A stretch of DNA of 64,000 nucleotides, from NCBI RefSeq assembly GCF_023055435.1, contig NW_025964383.1, positions 17,360,001-17,424,000 of the forward strand. The letters run 5' to 3'. The DNA is from Haliotis rufescens (Eukaryota). This document shows positions 21,110 through 37,598 of the stretch, one piece after another. The first letter of the stretch is position 1. Each line of letters opens with the position of its first letter. The notes beneath the pieces were generated by a model. The model was given only the letters and a program-made list of their open reading frames with translations, ran no database searches and was not told the DNA's origin. A program made the translations under genes and the position numbers.

Positions 21110-22017
21110 ATGTGTGTGTGTGTGTTTGCGTGTATACACTCGTTCTATTCACAGTGTATGACTACGGCTTGAAATTAATTGCATTGACCAGATAAACCAG
21201 TGATTGACATTATGAGCAACGATCCACACCTTTGGGGCACGATGACATGTGAATCAGTCCTCGCTAGGGGAGTCCTCCTTATGAATAACGCAGGAGTTTG
21301 TGCTGTATACTGCAAGTGGAATCGCTTGAGCAGGGAAGAAATACAGGGTTATCTATTTTAATATTTAAGATAATATTTAATATTATTTGCCTGTGTCAGC
21401 ATCTTTCCCACGCTGAGAGAGCTGAACTTTGGCGTGCGTGTTTCTTTGGATGATATCCTATTTTGTCCACAGAAAGAATTTAGTCTTAGTGTCAAGTCCA
21501 CAGCATTTAAGAAGAACTATTTAACATCAATGGTGACAGCATATATTTTTCAAGTGGCCGTTTTGTGTTGACATTTAAAACTGTTAAATGCATATCCAGC
21601 TGAGCTATGACGCCGTTGCTCTATTTCTAAACATTTCTTTTGTGGTTCCTGTTGCGTTTGTTTCAACGTTATTTTCAATTCAGAAGTTTGTTGTGACCCG
21701 TTCTGACGACCAGCAATATAATACGTGATTATTTACTATGAAATGTCTCATAAATGAACTCTGTCATTTTTTACTTTTATGTGTATCCTTTAGAACAATT
21801 GCAAAAGCTTGAGATGGTAAAGAAATCTTTCGACCTACGTGTAATTATTTATTTGTTATATTTGTTTAAAAGTGATCAGTAACAGCATTTGATTTTCTAT
21901 TTGGTTGCAATTAAAACTTTACCAATTCGATTATTTCTTACACTGTTCTTGTGGTGAACATTTGCTGGATTGTTTCTACATTATACAGGAAGACCGCTAC
22001 ACCTCACAGAGCTAACC

Positions 22018-25000
22018 ATGAGGCTTCAAGAGAAGAGGTACCCTCTACTGATACTGCTTATTCCCGTGTGGTTCAGTTCTGCTGAAAGAAGACGTGTTCC
22101 TTTTAAGAACTGCCTTTCAACAAGAACTGACAATGACTTCACCACAATCAAGCCGGCCAGAAGTAGGATCGAGTGTTCTGTGATCTGTCTGAATGAGCCG
22201 GACTGTCTGTCAGCCTCCTACTGCAAGACTACCGATGGCTACGCCTGTCACCTGAGCGGAATGTATTCAGACGGGAACTGTTCCGGGCTTGTTGAGGATG
22301 GGAACTGCACTGTGACTGTACTTGTGAGTTATCTTTTGCTTTTGTGCAAAATCATAAGTTTGTCTAAACTTCCAGAATCCGGTGTATCAAATCTAAATCC
22401 AATGATCATTTTTCAAGTGATTTGATGTAGTTAAGGCCCTTTTTTGTTACAATATAGATTTTGATTATTAAGCAAATCTTCGTCGTCTAAGGCGCCGCGA
22501 TTCGCTGTGCAGAGTTGCGTCCCTTGGGCATGCCAGAAACCTATGATTGTGGGTTCGAATCCCGGTTCGCCCCAATTATGTTTCAAGGTTTGTCAGCACC
22601 ATACCCGTGCTCGTGGGTTTCACCGAAGTGGTAAACGTCTTAGACCTGCATCACTTCGGGCTTTCCTCTCACATTAAGCTGACACGCCGTGATATAACTG
22701 GAATACTGTTAAAAGCTACGTCAAACCCAACTCACTCACTCACTCACTCACTCACTCAACTTATCCTGGCTAACCAAGTTTTCGGTCCGCACGACATTGA
22801 ATCTAACTGATGTCAATACATCGATACATTAATTCGTTTGGCCTTTGATCCATATTCAGTCTCCACAAGGTGTAGAAATATGACTGTTATAAGTTCGCGT
22901 GATAGTGTTAATGGGTTTCACGTATGGTTACTAAAGAAATATGTGTTTTTGTTTGTTGTTAGCTACACAAACTTCAATGCCTTCAATGTCTGTGAAAACA
23001 TAGGCGGTGACCAATGAGACAACAGACAAACGACCTTGACCATGTCTTTAAGAAATAAAGTTTGCTCTACCCCCATGTAATTAAGAAATAAACGACTTGT
23101 GGTCGGTGTATTTAGTACAATAAAACACTGCAGGAGCATAAACACCTCGGGGCTGCACATTGTATCTATTATAGTTGAAGTACGAGGACGATTGCACTCC
23201 GGCGCAGTGGAGACACAGCATAACACCAATGCCTCAGGTTAATTTGCATATCACGTGACCGCACTTTTCTCTTGTTTGTAAACAAACGCGCTTTTTCAGA
23301 AATCAGTATTGAACGGACTAATGCAAGTATTTGGAGGCGCTTTACATATTGTTTTGCATAATTATATAGATATGCTACTACAACTGCGACAGTGAGTTGC
23401 ATGACGTTATATATTTATGCATCAAAGTGACCGTATCGCTAGCTCTCCGTTGGGCTTCGATGACAGCACGTGGAGCCGTACAACCAATGTAAACAAACGA
23501 TAACTACGCAAAAACAAGTAGATATTCACGTATTTGCGTACTTTCTTAATGAACCGTAACCACTCTTTGACATTTGTTTATGACAATGTGTAGACTTGTC
23601 AAACATGAAACGGATGAATAGCATATGCAATATCTTGAATGAACCGTTAAAGATGTGACGAATCGTCACATGGCGCTGGCCTGTGGCAGCAGTACTATGC
23701 TGGCTGGCTGCCGGCCGCATGGAACTCTGGGTAGGATAGTGCCGAGTACTTTGACGTTATAATAGTTCCCGGCAAAACTTTACTTTCTTATTCTATATAA
23801 GATACCTACGCGGTAAGCTCAAAGAACAATGAAGAACGAAGCGTTTTTCATTTCACGATAAAACATTGTTCCATCAAGACGTCATTTCTGGAGATTCGGA
23901 CATGCGATCGCAACTTGATAGATGTAGCTGGGCACCGTAGATAAACGCAATGGCCGAACGGTCGTTTCCAAAAGTGGGAGAGATATGACAATCGGTATTG
24001 GGAGAAAAGGAACAGATAATCGACGAGAAAAGTGTGAGAATATGCTGGAAAGACTAAATTTAACCCCCTGTTCATAGAATGGACTTGTCCGACATTTCCG
24101 CGGTCAACTCCATGCAGGGAGTCATCATTATTGAAATTCGGGTAAATATTTTTAAGGCGTGTATCCTTAACGAGGCTCACGTAAAGTTGATATCTCATAT
24201 AAGAAATAAACGACTCGTGGTCGTTGTTTATCGTACACTAAAACACTGCAGGGAGAATAAACCATGAGGGGCGCAGCTCGTCCTTTATTTCTTAATCAAG
24301 GGGGTAGAGCAAACTAGTTTACTTTTCTTAGAATCTGCCGAATTTATAATTTAACCTTGTGTTTTATTTGAGATGGGTTTAAAAAGAAACTTGAGCTCGG
24401 CCCTCTGACAGGTATAACTGCCAAGCCGTTCCACCTATAACCTTACGTTGAGAGAAAATTAAAGCACTTTTAGCCGAATAAAACACGACTACAATGGGTA
24501 GTTAATGGTTTAATTAAGCCCCACTTTATTATAAGAAGGATTAATATTTACGTTTTTATAATAATTTGGTTCAGTTTAATCATTTGACTCGAAACATTCC
24601 ACACGTTCATTGTTGGGCCGAGGTAACGCGAGTAAACAAACCGACGTTCCGTGTCTCTGGTTATTGTGAGTTGAGATGTTTTCTGTCGTGAAAGTTGCAA
24701 CTTGTTACCCCGATGATGTCAGCAGACTTTAGCAACTGCAAGCCATAAAAAAATGTGCCTCTGGTTATTGTGAGTTGAGGTGTTTTCTGTCGTGAAAGTT
24801 GCAACTTGTTACCCCGATGATGTCAGCAGAATGTAGCAACTGCAAGCCATGAAAAAGTCTGCCTCCCCAGTTGGTTGCACTGCATGCTACCCTGAATCGA
24901 CATGAATGCCCGATAGTGAGCAGCCGGTGTACATGTGTCATGAAAGTCTTCATGAATTGCTCATGCCTGTGTCATCATGAATTGCTCATGTCTGTCATCA

Positions 25001-28000
25001 TGAATTGCCCATGTCTGTGTCATCATGAATTGCTCATGTCTGTCATCATGAATTGCTCATGCCTGTGTCATCATGAATTGCTCATGCCTGTGTCATCGTG
25101 AATTGCTAATGCCTGTCATCATGAATTGCTCATGCCTGTGTCATCATGAATTGCTCATGCCTGTGTCATCGTGAATTGCTAATGCCTGTCATCATGAATT
25201 GCTCATGCCTGTGTCATCATGAATTGCTCATGTCTGTCATCATGAATTGCCCATGCCTGTGTCATCATGAATTGCTCATGTCTGTCATCATGAATTGCTC
25301 ATGCCTGTGTCATCATGAATTGCTCATGCCTGTGTCATCGTGAATTGCTAATGCCTGTCATCATGAATTGCTCACGCCTGTGTCATCATGAATTGCTCAT
25401 GCTTGACATCATGAATTGCTCATGCCTGTGTCATCATGAATTGCTCATGCCTGTGTCATCATGAATTGCTCATGCCTGTGTCGTCATGAAGTGCTCATGC
25501 CTGTCATCATGAATTGCTCATGCCTGTGTCATCATGAACTGCTCATGTCTGTCATCATGAATTGCTCATGCCTGTGTCATCACGAATTGCTCATGCCTGT
25601 GTCATCATGAATTGCTCATGCCTGTCATCATGAATTGCTCATGCCTGTGTCATCATGAATTGCTCATGCCTGTTTTATCACGAATTGCTCATGCCTGTGT
25701 CATCGTGAATTGCTCGTGCCTGTGTCATCATGAATTGCTCATGCCTGTGTCATCATGAATTGCTTATGCCTGTGTCATCACGAATTGCTCATGCCTGTGT
25801 CATCATGAATTGCTCATGCCTGTGTCATCATGAATTGCTCATGCCTGTGTCATGAATTGCTCATGCCTGTGTCATCATGAATTGCTCATGCCTGTGTCGT
25901 CATGAATTGCCCATGCCTGTCATCATGAATTGCTCATGCCTGTGTCATCATGAATTGCTCATGTCTGTGTCATCATGAATTGCTCATGCCTGTCATCATG
26001 AATTGCTCATGCCTGTGTCATCATGAATTGCTCATGCCTGTCATCATGAATTGCTCATGCATGTGTCTTCATGAATTGCTCATGCCTGTGTCATCATGAA
26101 TTGCTCAAGCCTGTGTCATTATAAATTGCTCATGCCTGTGTCATCATGAATTGCTCATGCCTGTGTCATCATGAATTGCTCATGCCTGTGTCTTCATGAA
26201 TTGCTCATGCCTGTGTCATCATGAATAGCTCATGCCTGTGTCATCATGAATTGCTCATGTCTGTGTCAACATGAATTGCTCATGCCTGTGTCATCATGAA
26301 TTGCTCATGCCTGTGTCATCATGAATTGCTCATGCGTGTCATCATGAATTGCTCATGCCTGTGTCATCATGAATTGCTCATGTCTGTGTCATCATGAATT
26401 GGTCATGCCTGTCATCATGAATTGCTCATGCCTGTGTCATCATGAATTGCTCATGCCTGTGTCATCATGAATTGCTCATGCCTGTGTCATCATGAATTGC
26501 TCATGTCTGTGTCATCATGAATTGCTCATGCCTGTGTCATCATGAATTGCTCATGCCTTTGTCATCACGAATTGCTCATGCCTGTCATCATGAATTGCTC
26601 ATGCCTGTGTCGATAGACAGCCTTTATTCCTAGGGCAGCAACCCCCTCCTCGGACAATACTCTGGCTGCAGCGGCACGGACACATGTTTGAATGTTTGGG
26701 ATATGGGGTATGAGAGATGGTTGACATCATCTTGACATATTTCTTCCCAAGTGATAACAGTCAATTATTCGACAAGTTTAAAGAAACTATTTCGCCGATA
26801 ATTGAGGTGGACGCGCCATTTTGATTAACAGTAATGAAAGGACAATGTTACCAGGGATAGGATCCAGAATGTTTGTTTTTTTACATTTCAACAAAATTTA
26901 CAGTGTGGAGATCCGTAAACAAGTGAAAAGTGTGTGGCCTAAGTCTGTAACAATCCTTCTTCACAGGTGAATCCATGCGAAAATGTGTGGCCTAAGTCTG
27001 TAACAATCCTTCTTCACAGGTGAATCCATGCGAAAATGTGTGGCCTAAGTCTGTAACAATCCTTCTTTACAGGTGAATCCATGCGAAAATGTGTGGCCTA
27101 AGTCTGTAACAATCCTTCTTCACAGGTGAATCCATGCGAAAATGTGTGGCCTAAGTCTGTAACAATCCTTCTTCACAGGTGAATCCATGCGAAAATGTGT
27201 GGCCTAAGTCTGTAACAATCCTTTTTCACAGGTGAATCCATGCGAAAATGTGTGGCCTAAGTCTGTAACAATCCTTCTTCACAGGTGAATCCATGCGAAA
27301 ATGTGTGGCCTAAGTCTGTAACAATCCTTCTTCACAGGTGAATCCATGCGAAAATGTGTGGCCTAAGTCTGTAACAATCTTTCTTCACAGGTGAATCCAT
27401 GCGAAAATGTGTGGCCTAAGTCTGTAACAATCCTTCTTCACAGGTGAATCCATGCGAAAATGTGTGGCCTAAGTCTGTAACAATCCTTCTTCACAGGTGA
27501 ATCCATGCGAAAATGTGTGGCCTAAGTCTGTAACAATCCTTTTTCACAGGTGAATCCATGCGAAAATGTGTGGCCTAAGTCTGTAACAATCCTTCTTCAC
27601 AGGTGAATCCATGCGAAAATGTGTGGCCTAAGTCTGTAACAATCTTTCTCCACAGGTGAATCCATGCGAAAATGTGTGGCCTAAGTCTGTAACAATCCTT
27701 CTCCACAGGTGAATCCGTGCGAAAATGTGTGGCCTAAGTCTGTAACAATCTTTCTCCACAGGTGAATCCATGCGAAAATGTGTGGCCTAAGTCTGTAACA
27801 ATCTTTCTTCACAGGTGAATCCATGCGAAAATGGGGGAACGTTCCACCCCGGAAACAGGACCTGTCAATGTGTTGATGGCTTCGTCGGGGATTACTGCCA
27901 CAGGCGCTACCGAGGTTTGTAATACATTGCCTTTGCCATGGGTAGCCCAGTCACCAAGGCGCCGCAATTCGCGATGAAGAGTTTTGTCCCCTGAGCACGC

Positions 28001-30626
28001 CAGAATCCTATGATCCCGGGTAATATAAACTATTTGTTAAGGATATTCGCTGTCCAGTTGGGAGATACATTTTACAGGATGTTCGGAGATGTTGAGGTAC
28101 GTAAAGGGTGCGATTTGGGTGGTAGTTGTGGTTGGCACTCGGCGATTTGGGCATGGGACTGACGCATATTAACTCCTATTTCAAGCTATGATAAACTGAA
28201 GAAAACATGGGAGCGTGTGTGTTCTGCACTATCGTAATAGGTATAGCGTAGTTTAAATAGCAGGTGTTTGTGTTGAGACAATGAAGTGGAAGAAGTTGAT
28301 CTTGTTACATACACGCTTCACTTCTCTCCCAAAATGACGACGAAATGAGTCCTAATATCACTCAAGTCAGTGAGTCTGGACAATACTACTCAACTCCCCA
28401 TAGGGATACTGTGCTAGCTCACACTCTTACGAAAGTCGGGGGCCAACAACGTATAAAAGTTTTTGCTTTTGTTTCTTATGAAATGAAGCTTAACATATGC
28501 CAAGTCCAGCCCAAATTGTATTTGTACGTGCATCTGGACATTCAGAATATCCTTATCAAATATTGAGTAGTATATATCGAAATGAGGCCTGGGAATATTT
28601 TTATTAGCTTGCTTCAGAATTTTGACGAAACCCTCGGTCGGTTGCACCAATAACGTTATTTCATTACCTGCATGAGTGATATGGTGGTTTCATTTACAAT
28701 TGAGTGAGTAAGTATGATTTTACGCCGCTTTTAGCAATATTCCAACAATAAACCACTTAAACCACTAGGCTACCCGACCGCCCCCATTTACAATTGACTT
28801 GCCTGTGCATGTGTTTGTGACGGGTGCAATCGGTGGGGCAGGATACGCTCACCTTTTCGTGAACACATGGTAGGATCACTTTTTGATAGTAATTCATAAA
28901 CAAGTCGGATTCGAACAATCGGCTATGCTATTAGCAGATATTTCCTATGATTATTGAAAATATTATCTAATCCGGGATCTTGTCCCCATTATCCGCATGC
29001 CTTTGCGATTCGTGTTTCAAGAAGGAAATTCTGTAATTAAAATGCTAGTGTCGGTGTTCGTTATTTAGATCAACAATGAAGTGTAACTTTAGCATTCTGT
29101 TAGTGAACCCATGGCTAAATATTTAATATTGAAATGCAACAATAACGTCATATTTCACATGTCTGGAAATTATTTAGCAGTCACCTTTACACTTCACACA
29201 ACTTCATATATTCAGAGGGGGTAAGAGTGGCCCAGTCGTAATTCGTTGTGCAGAGTTGCATCCCTTGGGCACGCCAAAAAGTATGATCGTGGGTTCGGAT
29301 CCCGGTTAAGCCTGATTATCTTTCTAGGTCAGTCAGCACCACACCCGTACTCGTGGGTTCACCAAAGACGTAAACGTCGGAGACCCAACTCACTCACTCA
29401 CCCTTATACACCTTATACACCCTTATTCTCGTGAACATGTCCTTTTCTGAAGGGTTATGAAAATTGATAAGTCTATAAAGATCCTCCAGAGAACTATCAT
29501 TTGCCAGTTCTAATAATTCTTAATGTTGTCGTAAATGTCCATTTCTAGGACTTAACTTTTTGTTCTTTGCATTTGCCTCAAATAAGAACGCGTAAGCACT
29601 ATTAGAATCTGATGAATACAACTCCGCATTCCTAACGATCCAGGTTGTTAAAACAAGATGACCAGGATGTACATGTACTCACGACCCGTAAAGATCCGGG
29701 TAGAATAGCTCTTTAGCAACCCATTCTTGCCGTAAAACGGGATCGGGTGGACAGGCTCGCTGACTTGGTTGATACATGTCATCGATCCCAATTGCGTGGA
29801 TCGATGCTCATGTTGTCAATCACGGTCTTATCTCGTCCAGACTCGATTATTTACAGACCGCCGTCATATAGCTGGAATATTGCTGAGTGCGGCGTAAAAC
29901 AACAAACCAACCGACTATTCTGTACGCTTGTTTCTGTCTTTCACTTCAGATTGCTCGGAGGCACCAGAAAGGACAACACCAGGAAGGACAGATCAGTACC
30001 TCATTCAGCCGTGGGGGAGCACTCAAGTATTCGAGTGGTTTTGTAACCCTGTGTCTTCAAATTTAACAGCTGTTATACAGTTTGTGGATTTTTTTAACTA
30101 TAATCTTAAACTGACGTGGCAGCAGATGAGAAACGGCGTTCCACTTGACACACTGTTTTTTTTCCTTGGCCTTGAACAGCTATACCGCTTAACCAGTCAG
30201 GGAGTGTACGATTTGCTTGTCACACTTAATGCTGCTGGCGAGGATATTGGCCTTGTGTTGTACACAAACTTCCGTGTAGACTCAGAGGTAGAGGGTTATG
30301 TCTGGCATTGGGATTCCTTCCACAATGATCAAAGTAGTGGTTACATAGGCAGTGATCAGTATTTAGATGGGTTTGGAGGTGCAGGGGATTTAACCAAGAA
30401 CTTGAATGGAGCACGCTTTGGTACTTTTGACCGTGACGTGAACGACTGTGCCCGCATGAACAACGCTTCGTGGTGGTACAATCCAGTTGGTTGCGCAGCT
30501 ATTGGACTTGATGATCTATCATGGCCGACCAACCGACGTGGGACAGTTAAACTAGAGCACATGGATGCTGTTCTATTGTGGTTAGTTCCAAGACAATGGT
30601 ATATCGAAGATGACCTTGTCCTTTGA
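22018..30626 (+). CDS. Secreted PAN/Apple-EGF-fibrinogen-related-domain (FReD) protein, ~360 aa. Exons 22018-22323, 27815-27914, 29950-30626
   Basis: Signal peptide MRLQEKRYPLLILLIPVWFSSA; PAN motif SRIECSVICLNEPDCLSASY...CHLS; donor CTT|GTGAGT (phase 0). EGF exon VNPCENGGTFHPGNRTCQCVDGFVGDYCHRRYR; donor GAG|GTTTGT (phase 1). Acceptor TTCAG|AT gives DCSE...FFLGLEQLYRLT...YTNFRV...FGTFDRDVNDCA...WWY. An acceptor at 21988 implies an upstream 5'-UTR exon. Confidence 0.88.
22480..22757 (+). mobile_element. SINE family A (intronic)
   Basis: Consensus match. Confidence 0.9.
23048..24331. mobile_element. Non-autonomous element with inverted termini, possibly Crypton-associated; relatives at 56275-56620 (+) and 56890-57400 (-)
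   Basis: AGTTTGCTCTACCCCC...TTAAGAAATAAA versus TTTATTTCTTAA...GGGGGTAGAGCAAACT; internal block TATTGGGAGAAAAGG...GGGAGTCATCATTATT is shared with the 56-57 kb copies. Confidence 0.6.
24655..24866. repeat. 104-bp direct duplication
   Basis: CTCTGGTTATTGTGAGTTGAG... at 24655 and 24759. Confidence 0.9.
24900..26760 (-). pseudogene. Crypton-like tyrosine recombinase (DUF3504-type) C-terminal remnant split by a minisatellite
   Basis: SLGKKYVKMMSTIS [frameshift] CVRAAAARVLSEEGVAALGIKAVYRHRHEQFM [array] KTFM resembles the Crypton pattern LGKNxLxxMMxxIS...NHCVRATA...IxxVTGHRxExSLxxY. Confidence 0.55.
24950..26611. repeat. 25/23-bp minisatellite CATCATGAATTGCTCATGCCTGT(GT), ~67 copies
   Basis: Read directly. 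Confidence 0.98.
26931..27833 (+). repeat. 53-bp minisatellite, 17 copies, each containing the EGF-exon 3' splice site
   Basis: CAG|GTGAATCC junctions at 26967 + 53n up to 27815. Confidence 0.98.
28704..28784 (-). mobile_element. SINE family B, internally deleted
   Basis: 13-bp TSD CATTTACAATTGA at 28691 and 28785. Confidence 0.85.
28805..28885 (+). mobile_element. LINE 3'-end-like fragment (CR1-Zenon-like); second copy ~47026-47095 (-)
   Basis: GGTGGGGCAGGATACGCTCACCTTTTCGYGAACAC is present twice; family assignment is from memory. Confidence 0.4.
29217..29402 (+). mobile_element. SINE family A (degenerate)
   Basis: Head, core and tail recognisable. Confidence 0.75.
29682..29912 (+). mobile_element. 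SINE family D
   Basis: GACCCGTAAAGATCCGGG...GCGGCGTAAAACAACAAACCAACC. Confidence 0.85.
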
Positions 30627-31298: not shown

Positions 31299-31988
31299 TG
31301 ATGATCATGGTTCTTATTTATATGCAAAATAATAACTTTTCTGCTGGATATGTTTTAAAACGAGACACTTTGCTGTGGAAACAACCGATGATGCAATTGT
31401 GGATAATGACTTAACAAATACTGAATATTAAGATGTCTCAAATCATCACATCTTTTAGTACCACATACTCAGTTGTAAATGGGAATGTTGTGTGTGGAAA
31501 TTTCAGCTCTGATACAGCAGCCCTCTGTTTTCTGGCTGGGAAATAGGTCAGCGACATCACTACACGGCAGCATCCATTTTAATGAGTAAGGTGATGACGT
31601 GACAGGACACCCATCCTTTTCTACCCCCCAAAACCACCCCACCCTATATGGGGAATCGAACGTGGACCTTCGGGGTGACAAGCGACACCACCGCCCGGGA
31701 GAAATTGTTACCCAAATATACACAAAGAAAAAAGCTGAGCACACCCTAATATATTTCATTATTGCTTGGTCCCAATATTTGTAACAGTCATGAAAGATAT
31801 AATTACGGGAAGAATTATGTTTTCTCGAGATGATGTAACCAGTCATGCGTGACGAAAGTTCACGTGCCATGCATGGTATGCCTAAGCTTACACTTCCCGT
31901 GCAGCATCGCTGGAAGCAGTAAATCCAAACGTTAAGATTGCTTTCTTAAGCTCGGTTTTAAACAGTTATTCCATGACATTGTGTGACC

Positions 31989-32987
31989 ATGGCACGAAGG
32001 CGATTGTCAAACGCCACAAGATGGCAAATAATCGGCATGCATAACGCAGGAACGTCTTGTAAGGCCATTGGTCGGAATTTGGGGTATCATCACTCTGTCG
32101 TAAGCCGTTTAGTCGAGAAACATGCTCAGACAGGTGATGTACAGGACCGTCCCAGATCCGGAAGACCTCCTGTGACGACATATCGCGAAGACAGGGACCT
32201 TCTTCGTCTCATACGCCGAGAACCCTTTTTAGCAAGTACTCGTCTGAAACAGCTGTGGTTGCTAAATCGTCGTTTTAGCACCAGAACCGTCAGGAACCGA
32301 CTGAAAGCAGCAAGACTGATGACTAGACGAGTCATAAAGCGTCCCTTGTTGAGAGATCATCACAAAGCTGCTCGTTTAGCATGGTGTATTGCGCGACAGA
32401 ACTGGAATCTGAGAACTTGGTGTCGGATCCATTGGTCAGACTAAAGTCGCTTTCTGCTTCACGTCACTGATGAAAGAACGAGAATTTAGAGGCATCGGAA
32501 CCCGGCCTACACCCCCAGGAACATTAAACCGACTGTTGAAGACGGCGGGGGCTCGGTAATGGTTTAGGGGTGATTCTCTCATGATGCAGGTTGGATTTGG
32601 TCACCATTAGGAGCAACTTAACAGGGGCTCAGTACATCCGGGGCGTTTTGAGGCCAGTCGTCGTTCCTCATTTTGACAACAACCAACTTGCTACTCGACC
32701 TCAGTACATGGATGACAATGCCAGGCCGCATCGTTCGCATGCAGTCGTGGATTACATGAGGGCCAATGCAATAACGACTCTACCCTTGCCTTGAACATGT
32801 TTGGGATATTCTGGGGCGGCGCATACACGCACGAGATCCTCCTGTACACGATGTACGCCAATTGGAGGCAGCATTGCATCAAGTGTGGTTGTTGTTGACC
32901 CATCAACAGATCCAACGTCTGACTGGAGGCATGAGACGTAGGGTGGAATGCGTCATCTGGGCACGTGGTGGTTATACCCGCCACTGA
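31989..32987 (+). pseudogene. Tc1-family transposase pseudogene (element ~31720-33143)
   Basis: HTH MARRRLSNATRWQIIGM...DRPRSGRP, WSD*SRF, GGGSVMV*, MDDNARPHR, EHVWDILGRR, GGYTRH; several stops and frameshifts. Confidence 0.92.
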
Positions 32988-34306: not shown

Positions 34307-35452
34307 TTAGATTTAGAGGTTACAAAGAGGCCAGGCTTTGCTTCGGCAGCATGACGTGGTACTATATACACTCACCAGTAAAGTGTTGAACGTGCCTTTT
34401 GCTATTTGTCATTTTATACATTTTTAAGCTTTTATTTTTTAACTATTTCTTTGGCGGCAAGTCGGATTCATATTGAAATGGAAAGATTAATTTCTGAAGT
34501 ATACTTCATTAATTTGTCAGTAATTTTTATGAAACTCGACTTCTGAGTCGAACCGAAATACTTTGACATACAATTCACTTGACCTTCAATGTCCAGCGAT
34601 TTCGAAGGTCGAGTGTTATAAACCTACTGAACAGAACAGTGTAGTTCAAAACACTTTTCATCATAGTATTCACACTATACTAATGCCAAGATGTGGCGAG
34701 CTTTTAATGCTCTGTATCACTATTTTCTTGTCAAGTGTTTTACCAATTTGAATATCTGAGTTATACACCTCTCAGTATATTTTATCACATGTTTGATTTT
34801 TAATTTAAAATACTTTAAGTCCGCCATATTATATCCAGAAAAAAAACTGTACTGGTGTTTAGTGAGTGCTCAAAGAGTACTTATAGACGGTTAGATATTT
34901 TTTAATGTAATTTCCTTTAAATATTAAAAAAAAAAAAAAAAAAAATTATCATAAAAAATAACAACTGAAAGTTATCTTAGACATCTTATATTTGAAAATA
35001 AACAAATTTGTTTTTTGGTCACAAATTTACATATAAAACAAGGTATAGTCATGTGGCTGCAAATTCATTTCTTACCCTTGTCTTTATTCAATCATTTATA
35101 TTTACACAAAATTACCTAGCCACAGATTAATTTTTACAAAATGTTGCAGGAATGAGTAATGGTTAAATAGACATGATCTAATTGAACATCAGCTCTTTTA
35201 ATTTTTTATCACAAAAAAACAAACTCAGTTTATACACCTTATATGTAAACTGTGCTTAGTCCTTTGGCTATGCTGAAAGCGACATAGACTAATACTCACC
35301 TTACATAACATATATTTGCTTGTCTGAAATCAGTAAACTATTATCAAATTATTTGTTTATTGTGTTTGTGTCACACCATATTGTTCAAACTGTATGCCGA
35401 CAACCTGTGAATGATTGGATCTGGATCAGATAATCTCATTAAATGAAAAAGT

Positions 35453-35968
35453 GTACGAGAAACAACAGTCTTTGTCCTGTACAAGAAACAACAGTCTTTG
35501 TCCTGTACAAGAAACAAAAGTCTTGTCCTGTACACGAAACAACAGTCTTTGTCCTGTACAAGAAACGACAGTCTTGTCCTGTAAAAGAAACCACAGTTTT
35601 TATCCTGTACAAGAAACCACAGTTTTTATCCTGTACAAGAAACCACAGTTTTTGTCCCGTACAAGAAACAACAGTCTTGTCCTGTACAAGAAACAACAGT
35701 TTTTGTCCTGTACAAGAAACAACTGTTACAGTCTTCGTCCTGTACAAGAAACCACAGTTTTTGTCCTGTTCAAGAAACAACAGTCTTGTCCTGTACAAGA
35801 AACAACAGTTTTTGTCCTGTACAAAAAACAACAGTCTTGTCCTGTACAAGAAACAACAGTTTTTATCCTGTACAAGAAACCACAGTTTTTGTCCAGTACA
35901 AGAAACAACTGTTACAGTCTTTGTCCTGTACAAGAAACAACAGTTTTTGTCCCGTACAAGAAACAACA
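35453..35968. repeat. ~25-26-bp minisatellite ACAAGAAACAACAGTYTTTGTCCTGT, ~20 copies
   Basis: Read directly. Confidence 0.95.
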
Positions 35969-37598
35969 GATATGTGCTTCATTAGAAGGTACCATATTTA
36001 GCGAATATTTCGTATTAGTTAGGCACGCTTAACTCTAGACTACCAAACTGGTTGAAGATATGTGCTTCATTAGTAGGTACCATGGGTAGCGAATATTTCC
36101 TAGTAGTTAGGCATGCTTAACTCTAAACTACAGTAGTGGTTGAAGATATGTGCTTCATTAGAAGGAACCATGTTCAGCGAATATTTCCTAGTAGTTAGGC
36201 GTGCTTAACTCTAAACTACAGTAGTGGTTGAAGATATGTGCTTCATTAGAAGGTACAATAATCAGAGAATATTTCCTAGTAGTAAGGCACGCTTAACTCT
36301 ATACCACTGAACTGGTTGAAGATATGTGCTTCATTAGAAGGTACCATAGGTAGCGAATATTTCCTAGTAGTTAGGCATGCTTAACTCTAAACTACAGTAG
36401 TGGTTGAAGATATGTGCTTCATTAGAAGGAACCATGTTTAGCGAATATTTCCTAGTAGTTAGGCACGCTTAACTCTAAACTACAGTAGTGGTTGAAGATA
36501 AGTGCTTCATTAGAAGGTACCGTATTTAGCGAATATTTCCAAGTAGTTAGGCATGCTTAACTCTATACTACCGAACCGGTTGAAGATATGTGCTTCATTA
36601 GAAGGTACCATGGGTAGCGAATATTTCCTAGTAGTTAGGCGTGCTTAACTCTAAACTACCGAACTGATTGAAGATATGTGCTTCATTAGAAGGTACCATG
36701 GGTAGCGAATATTTCCTAGTAGTTAGGCACGCTTAACTCTATACCACTGAACTGGTTGAAGATATGTGCTTCATTAAAAGGTACCATGTTCAGCGAATAT
36801 TTCCTAGTAGTTAGGCGTGCTTAACTCTAAACTACAGTAGTGGTTGAAGATATGTGCTCCATTAGAAGGTACAATAATCAGAGAATATATCCTAGTAGTA
36901 AGGCCCCGTTAACTCTATACCACTGAACTGGTTGAAGATATGTGCTTCATTTGAAGGTACCATGTTTAGCGAATATTTCCTAGTAGTTAGGCACGCTTAA
37001 CTCTATACTACCGAACTGTTTGAAGGTATGTGCTTCATTAAAAGGTACCATGTTTAGCGAATATTTTCTAGTAGTTAGGCATGCTTAACTCTAAACTACA
37101 GTAGTGGTTGAAGATATGTGCTCCATTAGAAGGTACAATAATCAGAGAATATTTCCTAGTAGTAAGGCCCCGTTAACTCTATACCACTGAACTGGTTGAA
37201 GATATGTGCTTCATTTGAAGGTACCATGTTTAGCGAATATTTCCTAGTAGTTAGGCACGCTTAACTCTATACTACCGAACTGTTTGAAGGTATGTGCTTC
37301 ATTAAAAGGTACCATGTTTAGCGAATATTTTCTAGTAGTTAGGCATGCATAACTCTAAACTACAGTAGTGGTTGAAGATATGTGCTTCATTAGAAGGAAC
37401 CATGTTGAGCGAATATTTCCTAGTAGATAGGCACGCTTAACTCTACACTACAGTAGTGGTTGAAGATAAGTGCTTCATTAGAAGGAACCATGTTTAGCGA
37501 ATATTTCCTAGTAGTTAGGCATGCTTAACTCTATACTACAGTAGTGGTTGAAGATATGTGCTTCACTAGAAGGAACCATGTTTAGCGAATATTTCCTA
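35969..37598. repeat. 88-bp minisatellite, ~18.5 copies
   Basis: GATATGTGCTTCATTAG at 35969, 36057, 36145 and onward. Confidence 0.97.

Follow-up and report, generated by a model that had tools for sequence, protein, structure and literature searches.

Minisatellites that straddle an exon-intron boundary have been described in several human genes, on the donor side. [quoted passage not shown] 2006, PMC1557585). A literature search on acceptor-side minisatellites found only a two-copy case in CBS and a brief mention of FAM20C. In the former, 844ins68, the acceptor is duplicated and the distal copy is strongly favoured (PMC2630376, PMC1802585), a choice that PMC1802585 attributes to G runs lying between them. 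For the latter, one sentence in PMC5941971 mentions a VNTR over an intron-exon junction, with the side unstated.

Here, we analyzed a 53-bp array over an acceptor in an abalone gene, using a 64,000-nt stretch of genomic DNA (the window). A literature search for abalone reports found nothing on the 53-bp array. The features of the gene are as follows, with a slash marking splice junctions.

22018..22323, plus strand: first coding exon, with a hydrophobic N-terminus and a PAN-like domain; donor CTT/GTGAGT, with its GT at 22324.
22324..27814, plus strand: intron of 5,491 nt, containing the 53-bp array and two other tandem repeats.
24946..26611, no strand: unrelated 25-bp minisatellite of 68 copies in the same intron (Tandem Repeats Finder), ending 320 nt before the 53-bp array.
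26925..26933, plus strand: left edge of the array, GAAAAGTG, a short direct repeat resembling the exon-side GAAAATG at 27827-27833.
26932..27833, plus strand: 53-bp minisatellite of 17 copies (Tandem Repeats Finder and unit alignment), present in sequencing runs X5, X14 and X16.
27815..27914, plus strand: EGF-like exon of 100 nt, beginning at acceptor 17; donor GAG/GTTTGT at 27915.
29950..30626, plus strand: last coding exon, with a fibrinogen C-terminal domain and the stop codon.

Joined via acceptor 17, the three exons encode a protein of 360 residues with a PAN-like/EGF/fibrinogen build. The last exon matched Fibrinogen_C (PF00147) with an E value of 1.2e-15 and 58.4 bits against a curated Pfam cut-off of 22, and the PAN_1 (E, 0.0087) and EGF (E, 0.001 to 0.003) matches fell below their curated cut-offs; the label "lectin" would thus derive solely from the fibrinogen domain. 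The hydrophobic N-terminus is likely a signal peptide. Because an acceptor-like site (between 21988 and 21989, within window positions 21966-21995) precedes the ATG by 29 nt, the ATG exon is probably not the first one, and an untranslated first exon probably lies upstream. Among 71 candidate homologues, 8 proteins matched, and the five with names all came from Haliotis and shared this build. Neither the window's own protein nor a close orthologue turned up among these 8 matches or among 2 matches from 32 candidates, which left no annotated gene model to show the junction. Elsewhere, the window holds a Tc1/mariner-like transposase remnant (31977-32960, plus strand; HTH_Tnp_Tc3_2, E value of 8.8e-13; frame broken by stops) and two single-exon frames, one for a family 10 glycosyltransferase (fucosyltransferase; 45450-46655, minus strand, 401 residues) and one claudin-like (Claudin_2; 61654-62571, plus strand, 305 residues).

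Tandem Repeats Finder placed the array at 26925-27833, with 17.1 copies and 98% matches. As the first-pass annotation had described, the 53-bp unit joins 35 nt of intron end to 18 nt of exon start, so that each copy runs from a branch-like TAAC through a pyrimidine tract and CAG into the beginning of the EGF-like exon. The resulting 17 acceptors, CAG/GTGAATCC, are spaced exactly 53 nt apart from 26967 to 27815, which bears out the claimed 17-fold amplification. All 16 decoys (26967-27762) retain their AG, and AG/GT stands at the acceptor in 17 of 17 units; the segment 26967-27814 begins with GT and ends with AG, also as claimed. Head-to-tail units within the 10- to 100-bp range, in several copies of high identity and with an edge unit lying across a real boundary, are among the features of F7/CBS-type minisatellites, and these were found here. 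Unit 17 spans an acceptor that 28 paralogues have at the same place. Only 4 of the 53 columns vary among the 17 units, and three of these are C/T differences in the pyrimidine tract, too few to interpret in terms of selection. Since every unit carries the same branch, tract and AG signals, only downstream context can distinguish the 17 acceptors. A genome search with the unit, which skips common words, matched it at this locus only among 37 hits, and a dispersed repeat family was rejected on these grounds. Four further long minisatellites occur in the window (35452-35969, 35968-37598, 40239-41797 and 44095-44930), which together with the one at 24946-26611, listed first, have periods of 25, 26, 88, 49 and 58; two of them adjoin at 35968.

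Splicing of exon 1 to any of acceptors 1 to 16 leads to a stop at residue 120 (16/16), preceded by the tail VNPCENVWPKSVTI(L/F)(L/F)(H/Y)R, and the claim that only the acceptor at 27815 yields the full protein therefore stands. In these decoy messages, the stop lies at least 96 nt before the last junction. Under the 50- to 55-nt rule, a stop that far upstream of the last junction marks a message for decay, and rare mis-spliced messages would be removed by nonsense-mediated decay (NMD). Two other fates or explanations of the decoys were discarded. No polyadenylation signal (AATAAA or ATTAAA) occurs within the array, which argues against decoys acting as terminal exons. Masking by RNA structure was rejected because the predicted accessibility of the last 12 intron bases was low (0.0001 to 0.0135) for all 17 acceptors; it was highest at unit 17, although not decisively.

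The first-pass annotation had named an assembly artefact as a possible explanation of the array, and this was rejected on the basis of contigs from other sequencing runs. Because unit and exon first diverge at 27834, 27804 is the point at which a 31-mer graph has to split once one or more further units are present. In run X5 (study P2, same organism label), whose study differs from that of the possible source runs, the contig with the EGF-like exon begins exactly at 27804 and shows no differences over 630 nt. In run X14 (organism B), two contigs contain a joint at which the sequence goes back 53 nt, and in both X14 and X16 (organism C), contigs depart from the exon sequence at 27833 and run on into a unit with variants of their own. 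Since the X16 contigs do not cover the exon beyond 27838, the link between the X16 array and this exon is one of sequence only. The exon contig of X7, one of the four DNA runs compared, begins at 27848 and is uninformative on the array. Thus, the 53-bp repeat is genuine and common to three organism labels. Short-read contigs show presence and give no copy number, and the same applies to the summed contig depth over the unit, which greatly exceeded the single-copy level in X14 and X16. Around exon 3, X14 and X16 differ from the window at 22 of ca. 815 and 26 of ca. 793 bases, respectively (ca. 97% alike).

In order to place the array in its family context, paralogues were compared. The first coding exon had 42 matches in the genome and the EGF-like exon had at least 35 close matches (46 in all); the genome holds at least 35 to 40 genes of a single three-exon PAN-like/EGF/fibrinogen build, clustered on contigs C605, C604, C54, C84, C168, C14 and C468 of genome G000, with intact copies beside broken ones. 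The gene sets of C54 and C84 are nearly identical, and these contigs may represent two haplotypes. A literature search on this gene family found no paper. The AG lies at the same place in 29 of the 30 EGF-exon loci fetched, and the exon starts with GT in 15 of the 29 with an intact acceptor, since it usually opens on a valine codon; 13 of these 15 loci carry no junction array. AG/GT is therefore a family trait, and any duplication over this acceptor would yield GT...AG units. The +5 base of the 15 exon-start GT hexamers is A in 14 cases, C in one and G in none. The family's donors, in contrast, all have G at that position (exon 1, 30 of 30; exon 2, 30 of 30).

This family comparison bears on the proposal of the first-pass annotation that the array may correct itself by re-splicing. 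In such a recursive scheme, exon 1 would be joined to a decoy and the rebuilt donor CTT/GTGAAT would then jump to acceptor 17, restoring the 360-residue frame. On paper, the scheme is geometrically sound (a zero-length exon yields the full product), exons starting with a partial donor can be re-spliced (PMC6224609), and the rebuilt junction does differ from the real donor CTT/GTGAGT by the single base that had been claimed, at +5. However, that site has neither -1G nor +5G. A -1G permits any base at +5 and a +5G any base at -1 (PMC11732430), so that it fits neither donor class, and all 60 family donors have +5G. We used pairing energy with the 5' end of U1 as a crude measure of donor strength: the rebuilt site reached -1.7 kcal/mol, against -5.5 for the real exon-1 donor and a range of -4.8 to -12.3 kcal/mol for the 60 family donors, weaker than every one of them. 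Recursive splicing is held back by the exon junction complex and proceeds efficiently only from a strong rebuilt site (PMC6224609); of the hallmarks of an RS-exon, the AG/GT is present here and the strong rebuilt 5' site is absent. Moreover, the first 19 nt past acceptor 17 are the same as those past the decoys. Because the identical junction forms at the correct acceptor, a rebuilt donor able to rescue decoys would likewise remove the EGF exon from the correct product, with a frameshift as the result. The exon-start GT, finally, is shared with the 13 array-free loci counted above. We consider self-correction highly improbable, and the proposal was not upheld. In-frame micro-exons of 18 or 33 nt were also rejected, their internal donors being too weak (-1.9 and -1.3). 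The link that had been drawn to the AGGT model of intron gain fared no better: that model (Hellsten et al. 2011, PMC3265369) requires the motif to lie inside coding sequence and the intron to exceed ca. 60 nt, whereas the abalone AG belongs to an existing intronic acceptor and any retained whole unit leads to the residue-120 stop.

The picture differs for the unspliced array, in which CAG/GTGAAT paired with U1 at -8.4 against -7.7 for the true exon-2 donor, by the same crude measure, and so within the range of real donors. The array might then leak: acceptors 14 to 16 or 53-nt poison exons would be partly used, with the 120-residue stop and NMD as the outcome, and the full-length output would depend on copy number, much as in the VNTR rheostat that the first-pass annotation had suggested. 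Units could be defined as poison exons because each CAG/GTGAAT has an acceptor 53 nt upstream, unlike in single-copy paralogues, and every such path ends at the same stop. CAG/GTGAAT also fits the AG//GUNNN class, in which -1G allows any +5 base (PMC11732430), partial use of pseudo-sites has a precedent in CBS intron 13 and 6-16 (PMC1557585), and the array is common to three organism labels. On the other hand, none of the 60 real family donors lacks +5G, and under exon definition only the last few acceptors would compete, so that copies beyond about four would matter little. The frequency of such arrays, moreover, matches chance (see below). On balance, a leaky array seems unlikely. Its strongest form, in which 16 poison cassettes serve as a heritable copy-number dial on one immune-type fibrinogen protein and are kept as such by abalone lineages, we regard as improbable.

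Chance expectation was assessed from the minisatellite content of the genome and from the splice sites of the paralogues. In one paralogue (G000:C604:316354-316452, minus strand), the EGF-exon donor is covered by an array of 26 units of 48 bp, and this array is also flanked by microhomology, of 6 nt. In that paralogue (L034/L011/L151, with the following 1.25 kb), the unit is in frame, encodes 16 residues and repeats the EGF C-terminal DYCQRRYR, in an open frame of 516 residues; with a Cys replaced by Trp in the EGF exon and the last exon frameshifted, this copy may be decaying. Background density was taken from 40 blocks of 10 kb at round coordinates on six contigs, which is not a random draw. 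Minisatellite density is high: arrays with a period of 20 to 200 and at least 5 copies make up 18% of the DNA in the 40 blocks. Two blocks, L132 and L133 (G000:C2:7000001-7010000 and 12000001-12010000), consist wholly of a 179-bp satellite with 96 to 97% matches and lie 5 Mb apart; they are possibly part of a centromeric array. Leaving them out (38 blocks), arrays of at least 10 copies account for 7 to 13% of the sequence, and any one ancestral position has a probability of falling in a seed unit of 0.27 to 0.48% (0.58 to 0.77% with looser limits and all 40 blocks). We then considered 116 paralogue sites, that is, 29 each of exon-1 donors, exon-2 acceptors, exon-2 donors and exon-3 acceptors. 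After two were dropped as unplaceable (L042 and L106), 114 remained, although some paralogues may be allelic duplicates. An array was found at 1 of these 114 sites, the C604 donor, against 0.31 to 0.54 expected by chance. The frequency of junction arrays thus matches chance.

Taking these results together, the array is probably a locus-specific junction minisatellite, born by slippage, in which the last acceptor is picked and the 16 decoys are near-neutral. Both arrays, the 53-bp one and the 48-bp one of C604, end in a short direct repeat common to intron and exon, the pattern expected of birth by slippage. The founding duplication likely arose at the direct repeat formed by the left edge of the array and GAAAATG: a 53-bp duplication at GAAAA(G/T)G microhomology would have been followed by unequal exchange or slippage that expanded the array. 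Acceptor 17 would then be chosen by exon definition together with the donor 100 nt downstream. From acceptors 17 to 12, the exon length to the donor at 27915 grows from 100 to 153, 206, 259, 312 and 365 nt, and with an upstream intron of 5.5 kb exon definition would favour the last acceptor. Exon definition is established for vertebrates and flies, and its application to a mollusc is an extrapolation. Selection on the decoys would be weak, as the family has dozens of members. Several observations count against this near-neutral reading. CAG/GTGAAT is a plausible donor of the AG//GU class and pairs better with U1 than does the donor of exon 2; none of the 16 decoys has lost its AG, and the array is kept in three labels that are ca. 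97% alike in exon 3; pseudo-sites are used in CBS intron 13 and 6-16; and the G runs credited for the distal choice in CBS are absent from the 53-bp unit.

No transcript of the gene was found, and for that reason we infer the choice of acceptor 17. Among 24 runs, none was listed as RNA containing the gene, and two runs of related species guessed to be RNA (X17 and X18) gave no contigs on the EGF exon, neither of which is proof of absence. The gene might therefore be silent or decaying, with the array unconstrained whatever the spliceosome would do with it. The family undergoes birth and death (paralogue L042 has lost the EGF acceptor and several others have stops), the C604 paralogue combines its donor array with the two lesions described above, and 3 of the 6 exonic differences listed between samples alter a residue. 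Nevertheless, those listed differences (at least 6) are a small part of those present, and the gene keeps an open frame of 360 residues, canonical splice sites and the family cysteines, and exon 3 is free of gaps in the contigs that cover it in four of four other DNA runs. We regard a silent or decaying gene as quite improbable.

If the near-neutral reading is true, the locus is a curiosity with one practical use, as a natural test of exon definition in a mollusc: 17 identical acceptors differ only in their distance to the downstream donor, and the C604 paralogue, with 26 repeated donors on the same exon, allows the mirror-image test within one genome. From the base rate, many junction arrays are to be expected in minisatellite-rich genomes, which matters for gene annotation. 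Wider interest would arise only if copy number tunes output.

Compared with known systems, the closest likeness is to the arrays of human F7 intron 7 (a 37-bp VNTR), CBS intron 13, 6-16 (IFI6), LAMIN B2 and PDGF, in which, as here, the edge unit spans the exon-intron boundary. Copies of the splice site number 5 to 9 in F7 and up to 25 pseudo-sites in 6-16 (PMC1557585), against 17 acceptors here. The F7-type arrays repeat a donor, with the real site first, whereas the abalone array repeats an acceptor, with the real site last; splicing was measured in the former, whereas the acceptor choice in the latter is read from sequence. The C604 paralogue is the direct donor-side equivalent of the F7-type arrays. 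In CBS 844ins68, an acceptor and exon start are duplicated as in abalone, and use of the upstream site would likewise disrupt the protein, but there are two copies and G runs, as opposed to 17 copies of a unit without G runs and an exon that starts with GT. A duplication over the intron 1/exon 2 boundary of potato RdRp founded a new intron (Ma et al. 2016, PMC4974935) and, like that of abalone, inherited branch site, tract and acceptor; it depended on a good cryptic donor (GTAAG) carried along in the exon part of the copy, while the in-frame donors of the abalone unit are as weak as given above and no gain of an intron is shown. RS-exons (Blazquez et al. 2018, PMC6224609) resemble the abalone exon in having a partial donor at their start and a 5' site rebuilt after the first splice, but here the rebuilt site is very weak, the intron is only 5.5 kb long and re-splicing would damage the correct product. 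By analogy with several human genes, the extra acceptors are likely to be mostly ignored rather than to form a self-correcting device, and on our best reading the 17-copy array would be the acceptor-side mirror of the human F7/CBS repeats.
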